Virus genome (UHGV): UHGV-0017337
Strand: one strand, 5' to 3'
DNA from: a virus
DNA: 43,119 nucleotides
In this document: in pieces, positions 14,483 through 15,858 of the stretch
How positions within the stretch are numbered: position 1 is the first letter of the stretch
How the letters are laid out: every line of letters begins with the position of its first letter
Position numbers and translations under genes: made by a program
The notes under the pieces: generated by a model
What the model was told of the DNA's origin: nothing
The model's database searches: none
What the model saw: the letters and a program-made list of their open reading frames with translations, nothing else

Positions 14483-14524
14483 TTAAAATAATTCTTGACG
14501 GATTACACAAGGACGTGTAACCTA
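14483..14524 (+). promoter_or_regulatory. Conserved early promoter element copy 1 (UP-like TTAAAATAATTC, -35 TTGACG, 17-bp spacer with TTACAC/GTGTAA inverted repeat, -10 TAACCT)
   Basis: 44-bp stretch identical to copy at ~29676; precedes GGAGGG RBS and the Imm-like gene. Confidence 0.6.
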
Positions 14525-14553
14525 CAATCAACAAAACAACGGAGGGTTACAAA

Positions 14554-14733
14554 ATGGCTACTTTCATCATTCTTTTCTTAATCGCTGCTGTATATCTAAT
14601 CCCAGCACTCATCGCGATTAACGTTAAACATAAACAACAAACAGCAATTATTTTACTTAACATCTTTGCGGGTTGGACATTCGTCGGTTGGTTAGGTGCG
14701 TTAATCTGGTCTGTGTTAAAAAGCGACAAATAA
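14554..14733 (+). CDS. Superinfection immunity (Imm-like) small membrane protein, 59 aa
   Basis: Not in track (<60 aa); GGAGGG RBS; NIFAGWTFVGWLGALIWSV matches the GWT-x-GW-x-AL-IW signature of Imm-like proteins; stop abuts nuclease ATG. Confidence 0.5.
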   Translation: MATFIILFLIAAVYLIPALIAINVKHKQQTAIILLNIFAGWTFVGWLGALIWSVLKSDK

Positions 14734-14734
14734 G

Positions 14735-15838
14735 ATGAGTAGGAAACGTTTAACCACAGAAGAGTTTATCACACGTGCCCGTGAAGTTCATGAGCACAAA
14801 TACGATTACTCGCTAGTGGAGTATGTTAAATCATCGGTTAAAGTTCGAATCATTTGTCCGATACACGGAGTGTTTGAACAGAGTCCTAATAATCATGTTT
14901 CAATGAAACAAGGTTGCCCGCAATGTGCTGTTGAACAACGATATTTGAACACCAGAGAATTCATTAAACATGCTCGTGAAGTTCACGGAGACCGTTACGA
15001 TTACTCATTGGTGGAATATAAACACAACCTGAGCAAAGTTAAAATTATCTGTCCTAAACATGGTGTATTTGAACAACGTCCATGTGACCACGTATCAAAG
15101 AAAAAAGGTTGCTCGGGTTGTGCCAATAATCAACGATTAACCACAGAAGCGTTTATCACTCGTGCTCGTGACATTCATGGGGATCGTTATGATTACTCAT
15201 TGGTGGAGTATGTGAACGCTCGTTCGTGTGTGCAAATCATCTGCCCTGAACACGGGATATTTGAACAAACTCCACATGTTCATTTAAAAAGCAGTGGTTG
15301 CCCACAGTGTGGTTCTGAACAAAAAGCAGAACAAAAACGTTTAGGTGCGGGAGAATTCATCACTCGTGCTCGTGACATTCATGGGGATCGTTACGATTAC
15401 TCATTGGTAGAGTATTTGAATAATCGTAGTAAAGTTCGAATCATCTGCTCTGAACATGGTGTATTTGAACAAACTCCTGATACTCATTTGAAAGGTTGTG
15501 CTTGCCCACAATGTTCACAAGCAGGTTTTAACCCGTCAGAACCTGGAACGCTCTACGTGTTAGCTGATGATAAACAGTATCCCACTCTGATTAAAATTGG
15601 TATTACAAATAACTTAAAACGACGACTACACCAACTACGACGCGAAACTCCACACCATGTGGTTAAACTCGTGTCGTATCCATTTCCACACGGCGCTGAT
15701 GCTTACAAACTGGAACAAGAGGTACACAAGGTCTTTCACGAACTTAATGCGCGTCTCAAAGGCTTTGACGGTGCTACAGAGTGGTTTAAATACTCTCCTG
15801 CAATCCTCGACTACATAAATGAAAAAGCCCGGAACTAA
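14735..15838 (+). CDS. T5orf172/GIY-YIG-like nuclease with four N-terminal Cys/His repeat modules (homing-endonuclease-like)
   Basis: C-terminal LYVLADD...IKIGIT...RR..QL...EWF signature; N-terminal 4x module FITRAREVHGDRYDYSLVEY..KV.IICP.HGVFEQ.P..H...GCPQC. Confidence 0.55.
   Translation: MSRKRLTTEEFITRAREVHEHKYDYSLVEYVKSSVKVRIICPIHGVFEQSPNNHVSMKQGCPQCAVEQRYLNTREFIKHAREVHGDRYDYSLVEYKHNLSKVKIICPKHGVFEQRPCDHVSKKKGCSGCANNQRLTTEAFITRARDIHGDRYDYSLVEYVNARSCVQIICPEHGIFEQTPHVHLKSSGCPQCGSEQKAEQKRLGAGEFITRARDIHGDRYDYSLVEYLNNRSKVRIICSEHGVFEQTPDTHLKGCACPQCSQAGFNPSEPGTLYVLADDKQYPTLIKIGITNNLKRRLHQLRRETPHHVVKLVSYPFPHGADAYKLEQEVHKVFHELNARLKGFDGATEWFKYSPAILDYINEKARN
15157..15416 (+). repeat. Intragenic direct repeat: two ~56-bp near-identical copies (~15157-15212 and ~15361-15416) encoding adjacent repeat modules
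   Basis: cactcgtgctcgtgacattcatggggatcgtta[t/c]gattactcattggt[g/a]gagtat read directly. Confidence 0.6.
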
Positions 15839-15858
15839 CCGGGCTTATGTTTATTTTT
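15826..15858. terminator. Bidirectional hairpin terminator between convergent nuclease and chaperone genes
   Basis: AGCCCGG-AACTAA-CCGGGCT stem-loop flanked by A-run upstream and T-rich tract downstream; core CCCGGAACTAACCGGG recurs at ~40667. Confidence 0.55.

Follow-up and report, generated by a model that had tools for sequence, protein, structure and literature searches.

Gene 15 of phage HK97, the first gene to be named a moron, lies between the chaperone and tape measure protein (TMP) genes; its product, a small protein of the inner membrane, keeps superinfecting phages out at DNA entry by way of the tail (Juhala et al. 2000; Cumby et al. 2012; PMC3594210). Another exclusion protein, the 83-aa Imm of phage T4, is encoded between genes 42 and 43, ~92 kb from gene 29. 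Pore-forming colicins are helical proteins that insert into membranes, and next to the colicin gene, on the opposite strand and with its own promoter, lies the gene for a small immunity protein of the inner membrane. Such colicin/immunity pairs have served as an analogy for T4 Imm, which co-purifies with TMP, binding the TMP domain that adjoins its transmembrane helix, and whose exclusion is weakened by W50A and impaired by R33A (bioRxiv 10.64898/2026.03.06.709160).

Selfish nuclease genes form a second class of passengers. Homing endonuclease genes (HEGs) of the T5orf172 class, with arrays of CapR, DUF723 and DUF4379 repeats, are found near TMP and chaperone genes and at the boundaries of genetic exchange; they vary in repeat number and recombine with their paralogues (Barth, Dunham and Seed 2023, PMC10448857). 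A homing endonuclease gene of this class would be expected to be present in some genomes and absent from others at one defined site, the genomes being nearly identical elsewhere. The Seg and Mob endonucleases of T4, known from intronless homing and marker exclusion, are also encoded by intergenic selfish genes, whose spread co-converts flanking markers and leaves a divergent flank beside the gene.

The DNA analysed here (the window) is the whole 43,119-nt stretch of virus genome UHGV-0017337. An insert at its chaperone/TMP junction consists of two known kinds of passenger gene, which probably form one transcription unit, and the genome that hosts it is that of a 9NA/Sasha-like siphophage. We put a probability of roughly 0.7 on the reading that this accessory insertion is a superinfection-exclusion moron joined to a free-standing homing endonuclease. 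The insert and its neighbours are arranged as follows.

11852-14419, - strand: tape measure gene (PF20155 TMP_3, E 7e-53)
13224-14461, - strand: divergent 5' part of the TMP gene, aa 1 to ~400 (96% identity to Sasha ends at 13223)
14462-15814, no strand assigned: inserted DNA (from the empty junctions of Sasha, PDP46 and AVIO78A and pairwise blastn)
15825-15846, no strand assigned: native bidirectional hairpin terminator at the chaperone gene end (identical in Sasha and PDP46; annotated as a terminator in Sasha)
15835-16158, - strand: chaperone frameshift extension (GT; annotated frameshift product in Sasha and AVIO78A)
16131-16553, - strand: tail assembly chaperone G (phrog_8233)

Pfam matches of the neighbouring genes are TMP_3, Phage_TAC_18 and Phage_tube_2. 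The TMP gene likely starts at the ATG at 14419, although the mechanical ORF call runs to a GTG at 14437; in relatives, most loci are modelled with a product of 854-856 aa.

In pairwise blastn against the window, Sasha-type similarity ends at 14461 and picks up again at 15815, and the intervening ~1353 bp are an insertion relative to the empty-site sequences. The chaperone and TMP genes are joined directly by 72 bp, with the same hairpin, in Sasha, PDP46 and AVIO78A, whose flanks are 94-97% identical to those of the window, and the junction is also uninterrupted in Kpn BU9. Relatives with an empty site, which an earlier note on this DNA had proposed to look for, can therefore be named. Occupied sites are found in five isolates (the window, Bas82, PJ16, BDX09P1 and 536P12) and in 10 metagenome places, the latter retrieved by the exact imm sequence. 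The locus thus resembles both HK97 gene 15, in that extra DNA separates genes which are adjacent in related phages, as expected of a moron (Juhala et al. 2000), and the T5orf172-class HEGs, in that presence and absence alternate at one defined site between near-identical genomes. The G+C content of the insert, mostly 38-41% and up to 44% at the 3' end, differs little from the 40-50% of the flanks. A discrete + strand unit exactly between the chaperone and TMP genes had been described, and both + strand ORFs are there. The edges proposed for it, 14483 and 15858, belong to a real insertion; the left one lies 21 nt too far inside and the right one takes in ~44 nt of native DNA.

The first of the two genes is preceded by a ribosome-binding site.

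14541-14545, + strand: ribosome-binding site GGAGG, 8 nt before the imm ATG (read from the sequence)
14554-14733, + strand: imm-like gene, 59 aa, two hydrophobic helices, T4 Imm family (PF14373, 62.5 bits; phrog_1039)

The 59-aa protein matches PF14373 (Imm_superinfect) over profile positions 1-42 of 42 (E 3e-17, cut-off 27.9 bits), with a score comparable to that of T4 Imm itself (58.2 bits in the same test), and its PHROGs family is annotated as immunity to superinfection. What had been put forward as an Imm-like ORF is a genuine Imm-family gene. In contrast to the YebO-like gp15 of HK97, it has no YebO-type family among the Pfam matches listed at E <= 0.1. Kyte-Doolittle windows of 19 residues reach maxima of 2.96 (starts 1-8) and 1.84 (starts 31-37), with KHKQQ in between, and two hydrophobic helices are also a feature of T4 Imm, to which the protein is 28% identical over 47 aa. 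Y14, P17, A21, I32, W41 and W52 are invariant in eight homologues including T4, and W41 aligns with T4 W50. The position of T4 R33, an arginine in seven of the eight sequences, is taken in the window protein by V24, which is followed by K25. The two proteins also differ in the place of their genes, as the window imm abuts the TMP gene.

The gene is intact in four GenBank relatives, already annotated in two of them (Bas82 and PJ16), and conserved in every occupied relative, which answers the question of whether the small ORF is kept. Close relatives differ by five conservative non-synonymous changes and one synonymous change; these are too few for dN/dS, which was dropped, and purifying selection is not demonstrable at such depth. 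By analogy with T4 Imm, the two-helix protein would sit in the inner membrane and block the genome entry of later phages via their TMP, a role in superinfection exclusion that may make it a counterpart of HK97 gp15.

The second gene begins one base after the imm stop, directly 3' as had been described, with no terminator between the two. It has the following parts.

14735-15838, + strand: nuclease gene, 367 aa (DUF723, DUF4379, T5orf172 and MUG113 in Pfam; phrog_681)
14745-15514, + strand: four zinc-finger repeats (repeat family D1, four DNA repeats of 179 nt)
aa 271-359 of the product: C-terminal T5orf172/GIY-YIG-type domain

Its Pfam scores are 51.1 bits for T5orf172 (PF10544, cut-off 20), 50.3 bits for PF13455, 57.4 bits over three stretches for DUF723 and 32.3 bits for DUF4379, and it matches phrog_681 (endonuclease) at E 4e-115. 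Each of the four repeats contains C-x-H...C-x-x-C, and the motifs GTLYVL, KIGIT, the KRRL arginine, LEQEVH and ATEWF are present. A sequence search of the PDB with the nuclease matched no solved structure. The last ~8 codons and the stop are read from native DNA. Members of this nuclease family occupy 2402 places in 1090 phage records, with up to 12 per genome, and some copies adjoin, or sit between, annotated DNA polymerase gene fragments.

Among genomes with flanks 97-100% identical, the nuclease has one, two, three or four repeats. Two of the five isolates carry lesions, a GAA-to-TAA nonsense change in PJ16 and a 2-nt deletion in the GIY motif of BDX09P1, with imm intact in both. The window also encodes a 68% identical paralogue at 31913-32788, and the catalytic domains of the two look exchanged; relatives cover just 38-63% of a 2.5-kb query around the paralogue, which fits its absence there. 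This architecture and behaviour are those of the T5orf172 HEGs (PMC10448857), from which the window copy differs in nothing essential, its peculiarities being the position behind an Imm gene, with predicted co-transcription, and the last codons taken from target-site DNA. The mobility that had been attributed to the nuclease agrees with the homing behaviour of its family, and the gene most plausibly encodes a free-standing homing endonuclease of the T5orf172 class of the GIY-YIG superfamily. The zinc-finger array would give the enzyme its DNA-binding specificity, and when phages co-infect, it would cleave relatives that lack the cassette close to the junction.

Upstream of imm lies a promoter-like element with the following parts.

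14466-14479, + strand: 14-nt direct repeat TAAAAAGCGACAAA, upstream copy (two copies found, 0.03 expected)
14482-14523, + strand: promoter-like element (three window copies, all + strand; 0.00 expected by chance)
14482-14494, + strand: AT-rich upstream part of the element
14495-14500, + strand: -35, TTGACG
14503-14520, + strand: palindrome TTACAC-N6-GTGTAA in the promoter spacer
14518-14523, + strand: -10, TAACCT

The stretch TTGACG-17 nt-TAACCT (14495-14523) is part of a 26-nt element that recurs at 89 places in 28 records, all of 9NA-like phages, with two to six copies per related genome; among relatives the palindrome half-sites are mostly conserved and the 6-nt spacer is variable. The GGAGG and 5'UTR of imm are common to the promoter copy at 29689. 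To judge from these copies, the promoter and 5'UTR before imm are a resident repeat of the phage lineage, which rules out an imported promoter. The cassette had been credited with a promoter of its own. A promoter-like element does precede imm, but it belongs to the lineage, and a sigma-70 consensus scan made no call at 14495-14523. Its near-consensus -35, TAnnnT -10 and operator-like palindrome suggest that it would drive a bicistronic + strand RNA. The nuclease has no clear Shine-Dalgarno sequence and, given the 1-nt gap after the imm stop, is probably translationally coupled to imm.

The region has two other repeats. The second copy of TAAAAAGCGACAAA (14717-14730) forms the last codons of imm, and both copies carry the same G-to-A change in Bas82; as a sign of function, the covariation of the copies points both ways, with one concordant change (Bas82) and one discordant (L016). 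A 16-nt inverted repeat, with one arm in the TMP ribosome-binding region and the other in the KRLTT codons of the nuclease, was set aside, as ~0.3 are expected by chance on a rough estimate.

The bicistronic RNA would end at the hairpin behind the chaperone gene, AAGCCCGG-N6-CCGGGCTT (15825-15846). This is called terminator-like on both strands, with folding energies of -16.8 and -15.5 kcal/mol (z -4.9 and -3.8). The earlier note counted a bidirectional terminator among the parts of the cassette, and phages without the cassette also have this hairpin at the end of the chaperone gene. Its presence in empty sites rules out that it belongs to the cassette, which borrows the hairpin and did not import it. 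A moron in the sense of Juhala et al. (2000) has its own terminator; the insert lacks one. With promoter and 5'UTR resident and terminator native, the unit is not the self-contained cassette that had been envisaged. The point that tail transcription must pass a terminator to reach the TMP gene stands; because the terminator is native, this requirement is older than the insertion and not of the cassette's making. In comparison with HK97 gene 15, then, the window unit runs antisense to the tail genes, includes a second gene, and relies on a resident type of promoter and a borrowed terminator. Moreover, gp15 is expressed from the prophage of a temperate phage, HK97, whereas 9NA-like phages are virulent.

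The DNA on the TMP side of the insert is mosaic. The window matches Sasha at 96% identity as far as 13223 and again, at 94%, from 15815 onwards; what lies between is foreign. TMP aa 406-861 are 96% identical to Sasha, while aa 64-394 are 57% identical to IME207-type TMPs and 30% to Sasha; the latter region holds the TMP_3 domain and the only strongly hydrophobic stretch of the protein (~aa 90-110). The divergent 5' part is present in all cassette-bearing genomes examined and is carried by cassette-bearing records only; in IMG/VR no window-type TMP allele without the cassette was found, just the two occupied contigs. Joint import of imm and the TMP N-terminal half from a Skate/Shuimu-like donor was considered, since the closest homologues of both occur in the same phages. 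It was weakened by the Sasha-like character of TMP aa 7-53 and the intervening ribosome-binding region, and by equally close TMP relatives without imm. Because the adjoining TMP half is also foreign, the best reading is that the nuclease marks a recombination boundary. Repair off a cassette-bearing genome would copy the cassette together with neighbouring TMP DNA, and such co-conversion would parallel the divergent flanks of the Seg and Mob genes, although these encode a different nuclease subfamily. The foreign TMP segment could also stem from a recombination event unrelated to the nuclease.

Other accounts of the two genes are possible. The earlier note saw imm and nuclease as a competition module, which as a co-adapted pair would be selected and passed on together, Imm barring rival DNA and the nuclease destroying or converting what enters. 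Besides the tight spacing without a terminator, their joint presence in 15 of 15 occupied genomes examined speaks for it, as do an Imm-like gene followed by an HNH endonuclease gene at a comparable place in Aeromonas phage pIS4-A and the endonuclease genes just past the TMP gene in swi2 and IME207. No genome with imm alone or nuclease alone at the insert site was found among the occupied isolates and metagenome places, leaving no sign that the two genes arrived separately. The pair is nevertheless not conserved. In an IMG/VR scan built on a four-sequence Imm alignment, a T5orf172 gene lies beside just two of 80 Imm-like loci, both on window-like contigs; most Imm homologues precede unrelated genes, for example DUF551 or metallophosphoesterase genes, the 2402 nuclease places lie for the most part in other regions of phage genomes, and the nuclease is inactivated in PJ16 and BDX09P1 with imm kept. 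A co-adapted module is accordingly improbable. Since the nuclease decays and reshuffles and imm persists, the two are best read as neighbours of convenience and not as an obligate pair. Domestication of the nuclease, either as a CapR-like regulator or as an anti-satellite or anti-phage nuclease like ICP1 Odn, with a zinc-finger array that tracks a changing target, is less probable still. The repeats are relatives of the CapR homology domain (the paralogue's CapR match is weak, 21.5 bits, below cut-off), array length shifts fast, from one to four repeats, and there are published cases in which T5orf172 and CapR domains were domesticated (PMC10448857, PMC8263062). However, presence/absence polymorphism at a precise intergenic site beside an essential gene and the position at a mosaic boundary speak against it, and the independent inactivating lesions accord better with the invade-and-decay cycle of a selfish gene than with a function that is maintained.

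A more serious competitor, which we still consider unlikely, concerns imm and its other neighbour. Imm may adjoin the TMP gene because TMP is its partner, with Imm specificity matched to the transmembrane-bearing N-terminal TMP segment, the two inherited as one block and the nuclease merely spreading it. The foreign block does join imm to TMP aa 64-394, with the hydrophobic stretch and the TMP_3 domain, and T4 Imm binds the TMP domain beside the transmembrane helix (bioRxiv 10.64898/2026.03.06.709160). HK97 gp15, encoded at the same place, acts through the tail (PMC3594210). Imm-family genes lie within ~1.2 kb of the TMP gene start in Shuimu-, Swiduo-, Jersey-, Kaguna- and Roufvirus and in Pseudomonas phage YMC11/02/R656, in arrangements that differ among them, lineage counts that ignore shared ancestry of the tail modules. 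In IMG/VR, 37 of the 80 Imm-like loci are equally near a TMP gene, and among them are two different Pfam TMP domain types, TMP_3 and TMP_2 with Tape_meas_lam_C. Against such a pair, imm is far from the TMP gene, or away from its expected place, in the T4-like phages and mycobacteriophages of the match lists, no Imm-like gene lies within 4 kb in 15 TMP_3 relatives (50-57% identity), and phages that lack imm have TMPs just as closely related in the N-half. Sequence comparison detects no similarity between the window TMP and T4 gp29, so the Imm-binding domain of T4 could not be mapped onto it. The likeness of imm and TMP to a colicin and its immunity protein would be one of analogy, with no homology. 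If a matched pair did exist, tight linkage would keep the match while the nuclease spreads the block, and siphophage TMP N-terminal diversity would partly reflect an arms race of exclusion and escape.

The preferred reading, a moron joined to a homing endonuclease, makes the cassette a textbook-style combination, with a putative exclusion gene at the classic chaperone/TMP site and a T5orf172 HEG at a recombination boundary. Neither gene departs from its known kind, and both are auto-annotated in GenBank relatives, but imm adjoins the gene for its likely target. The locus offers a clean natural test case, as isolates with the insert (Bas82 and PJ16) and without it (PDP46, AVIO78A and Sasha) are otherwise ~95% identical, and homing, tail-gene co-conversion and Imm-type exclusion in siphophages are thereby directly measurable. 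Imm-family genes cluster beside TMP genes in several unrelated siphophage lineages and with different TMP families. Together with the reported interaction of T4 Imm and TMP, this clustering would link the specificity of superinfection exclusion to the diversity of tape measure proteins.

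The window covers much of a 9NA/Sasha-like siphophage genome. ORF calls bear out the earlier description of a two-gene + strand unit amid the - strand chaperone and tape-measure genes:

Tape measure gene, - strand: PF20155 TMP_3 (E 7e-53)
14554-14733, + strand: Imm-like ORF, 59 aa, with GGAGG 8 nt upstream
14735-15838, + strand: nuclease ORF, 367 aa, starting one base past the stop of the 59-aa ORF
Chaperone G gene with frameshift extension, - strand: phrog_8233
Tail tube gene, - strand: part of the window's tail module
31913-32788, + strand: paralogous T5orf172 nuclease gene, 291 aa, between the portal gene and the early genes

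Over 13500-17000, the Escherichia phages KarinMuster_Bas82 (Bas82) and PJ16 and the Sashavirus phages BDX09P1 and 536P12 are ~91-93% identical across 91-99% of the length. For Sasha, Sergei, Solent, PDP46 and AVIO78A the match begins only at 15815. Comparison with relatives, as the earlier note had proposed, located an uninterrupted chaperone/tape-measure junction in Sasha, PDP46 and AVIO78A, with 72 bp from chaperone stop to tape-measure start, and likewise in the Klebsiella phage Kpn BU9. The empty junction reads ...CAGTTTAACACG|TTAACCATAATATATGAAAAAGCCCGGAACTAACCGGGCTT...; the window keeps its left anchor, ending at 14461, and the hairpin common to both from 15825, so the inserted DNA runs from 14462 to ~15814.

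A 14-nt exact direct repeat, TAAAAAGCGACAAA (14466-14479 and 14717-14730), flanks the promoter and imm. Removing 16 nt from the imm-stop/nuclease-start junction gives the sequence of the upstream copy and the 7 nt after it; this looks like the scar of an older junction joined via CGTTTAA microhomology. Both copies carry the same G-to-A change in Bas82; another contig is altered in one copy only. On the - strand of the left junction (14440-14480), TTGTCG-16 nt-TAAACT, read by eye, is a weak promoter-like match (8/12, sub-threshold in the scan) whose -35 falls in the insert and whose -10 belongs to native sequence; the empty site has TTCATA-17 nt-TAAACT. This match may be due to chance.

Identity to Sasha-type genomes runs at 96% as far as 13223 and at 94-96% again from 15815; the interval between holds the cassette together with the tape-measure gene's 5' part. 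Protein comparison with Sasha and Shuimuvirus IME207-type phages identifies the tape measure protein (TMP) as a chimera:

aa 7-53: 77% identical to Sasha
aa 64-394: 30% identical to Sasha, 57% to Shuimuvirus IME207-type proteins
aa 406-861: 96% identical to Sasha

Carriers of this N-terminal allele are limited to four GenBank phages, all with the cassette, and two IMG/VR contigs; cassette and allele are thus completely linked in the data available. Co-conversion driven by the nuclease would yield such a linked mosaic, and a recombination event unrelated to the nuclease is a possible source as well.

The second ORF was correctly read as a nuclease, matching PHROG 'endonuclease' (E 4e-115) and carrying a C-terminal T5orf172/MUG113 domain with DUF723/DUF4379 zinc-finger repeats ahead of it. 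Its family occupies 2402 places in 1090 phage records, up to 12 per genome, some next to annotated fragments of a DNA polymerase gene or between them. Barth, Dunham and Seed describe just such a class of T5orf172 homing endonucleases, in which CapR/DUF723/DUF4379 zinc fingers are repeated; its members are enriched beside essential genes, tape-measure and chaperone genes among them, recombine among repeats and among paralogues, and lie at the ends of exchanged segments (PMC10448857). The cassette nuclease shows all of these traits, in architecture, location, recombination and boundary position. Its four repeats are 60-79% identical to one another in DNA, and relatives have 1, 2, 3 or 4 repeats between flanks that are 97-100% identical. 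The paralogue, 68% identical overall and ~90% in the catalytic domain, has residues in common with the cassette nucleases of other isolates, suggesting conversion between the paralogues. Coverage of the surrounding 2.5-kb region by GenBank relatives reaches only 38-63%, consistent with absence of the paralogue from them. Elsewhere, a 139-aa ORF (23948-24367, - strand) contains one unit like the nuclease zinc-finger repeat (tblastn E 3e-08), with neither a nuclease domain nor a match in Pfam or PHROG; it may represent a remnant, or else a DNA-binding module that was domesticated. In a metagenome relative (L017) the cassette nuclease has a single repeat (171 aa), and another T5orf172/CapR-type nuclease gene is inserted among the tail-completion genes (7885-8180).

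Assignment of the 59-aa ORF to the superinfection-immunity (Imm-like) family also holds. The protein matches PF14373 Imm_superinfect at 62.5 bits (cut-off 27.9) and PHROG 'immunity to superinfection'; for T4 Imm, 28% identical over 47 aligned residues, that Pfam model gives 58.2 bits. Two strongly hydrophobic segments are separated by KHKQQ. When aligned, eight homologues representing six phage groups, T4 among them, share six invariant positions, one of them W41, the counterpart of T4 W50. In a 2026 preprint, W50A and R33A are reported to weaken exclusion by T4 Imm, and T4 Imm to co-purify with a tape-measure fragment that includes the transmembrane helix and a helical bundle domain (bioRxiv 10.64898/2026.03.06.709160). 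As a caution, the R33 position is Val in the window protein, followed by Lys. All four occupied GenBank relatives have an intact imm (95-97% identity), and 71 indexed blocks of public assemblies contain the exact sequence of the window gene, with the same gene order in 10 of the 10 places listed.

The earlier suggestion that Imm and nuclease form a paired module is not borne out. A T5orf172 gene lies beside the Imm-like gene in 2 of 80 IMG/VR loci, both window-like contigs, and the two families rarely adjoin outside the window lineage. In other phages the Imm homologue is followed by DUF551 genes or a metallophosphoesterase gene, and in Aeromonas phage pIS4-A by an HNH endonuclease gene. In swi2 and IME207, endonuclease genes lie immediately beyond the tape-measure gene, and nucleases are thus frequent in tail modules of this kind. 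The nuclease is broken beside an intact imm in PJ16 (a GAA-to-TAA nonsense codon ahead of the ATEWF motif) and in BDX09P1 (a 2-nt deletion within the GIY-like motif). Because nucleases are common there and this one decays while imm stays intact, two passengers in one transcription unit are favoured over a co-adapted module.

Nor does the bidirectional terminator belong to the cassette. The hairpin behind the chaperone gene (from 15825) is terminator-like on both strands (-16.8 and -15.5 kcal/mol), but an identical one stands at empty sites, annotated as a terminator by Sasha's depositors; since phages without the cassette have it, it is native to the tail operon. Tail transcription must indeed pass a terminator before the tape-measure gene, but this requirement is ancestral and not owed to the cassette. 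The nuclease ORF takes its last ~8 codons and its stop (INEKARN*) from native DNA; the paralogue ends differently after DYI, a motif common to both. A similar hairpin lies 3' of the tube gene (about 16612-16637; GCCCGG-N6-CCGGGC, like that at 15825). There, between tube and chaperone genes (16553-16659), the window is empty, and Sasha, Bas82, PDP46 and several metagenome contigs have + strand genes, encoding 207 aa in Sasha, 87 aa in Bas82, PDP46 and contig L022, and 106 aa in contig L014. Given these genes at the second hairpin, there are two moron sites in the phage group, both next to a native bidirectional hairpin.

A sigma-70 consensus scan of the window called no promoter ahead of the cassette. 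A 26-mer, TTGACGGATTACACAAGGACGTGTAA, occurs at 14495, 29689 and 40704 (the last with 2 mismatches), all on the + strand, with none expected by chance. The element comprises an AT-rich upstream stretch, a near-consensus -35, a 17-nt spacer with the palindrome TTACAC-N6-GTGTAA, and a TAnnnT-type -10; besides the cassette copy, the window has copies in 29677-29740 and 40692-40740. The 29689 copy, which has its 5'UTR and ribosome-binding site in common with the cassette copy, would drive a different small membrane protein (114-119 aa, 29733/29748-30092, phrog_27401, function unknown). A copy also lies just upstream of the second-site gene in all phages checked (PDP46, Bas82, 536P12 and Kpn BU9). 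Relatives mostly keep the half-sites and vary the 6-nt spacer, as expected for a protein-binding operator. From this pattern we infer a regulated host-type promoter, used by the lineage for several small + strand genes. The element's 89 places among GenBank phages, spread over 28 records, all belong to the 9NA-like group, with 2-6 copies in each complete genome. A promoter-like element does precede imm, as claimed, but it is a resident repeat of the lineage. A partial copy of its AT-rich part (CGTTTAAAATAATTCT, 31872-31887) lies 26 nt upstream of the paralogue.

Imm-like genes lie near tape-measure genes in three arrangements:

Antisense, between major tail and chaperone genes: Shuimu-, Swiduo-, Jersey-, Kaguna- and Roufvirus
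Antisense, between chaperone and tape-measure genes: the window lineage
Same strand, directly upstream of the tape-measure gene: Pseudomonas phage YMC11/02/R656

A tape-measure gene starts within ~1.2 kb of the Imm-like gene in 37 of the 80 IMG/VR loci (L028-L107), against a rough inferred chance expectation of ~5% if a gene is placed at random in a genome of 50 kb, which ignores shared ancestry; several siphophage lineages (loci L011, L012 and L024-L027) show the same proximity. Pfam searches on cluster representatives confirmed the nearby TMP as either TMP_3 or TMP_2 with Tape_meas_lam_C, and the proximity spans two unrelated Pfam domain types as well as the three arrangements. A further ten Imm-like loci lie 1.3-2 kb upstream of a gpJ-like tail-tip gene. 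T4 is an exception, with imm far from its tape-measure gene. The sampled mycobacteriophages probably lack the linkage as well, judging from the position of the Imm match near the right end of the record. Fifteen related tape-measure genes lack an Imm neighbour. HK97 gene 15, the founding moron, encodes an inner-membrane exclusion protein acting through the tail and occupies the same chaperone/tape-measure site as the cassette (PMC3594210). The T4 Imm preprint does not discuss gene neighbourhoods (bioRxiv 10.64898/2026.03.06.709160), and a literature search found no paper on Imm/tape-measure gene adjacency.

The original observation is confirmed, with partial support for its interpretation. Each component is an ordinary member of a known family and already carries a name in GenBank relatives; their arrangement is a further instance of two themes, the exclusion moron at the tape-measure gene and the homing endonuclease at a mosaic boundary. 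The linkage of Imm to the tape-measure gene is the sole lead of broader interest.
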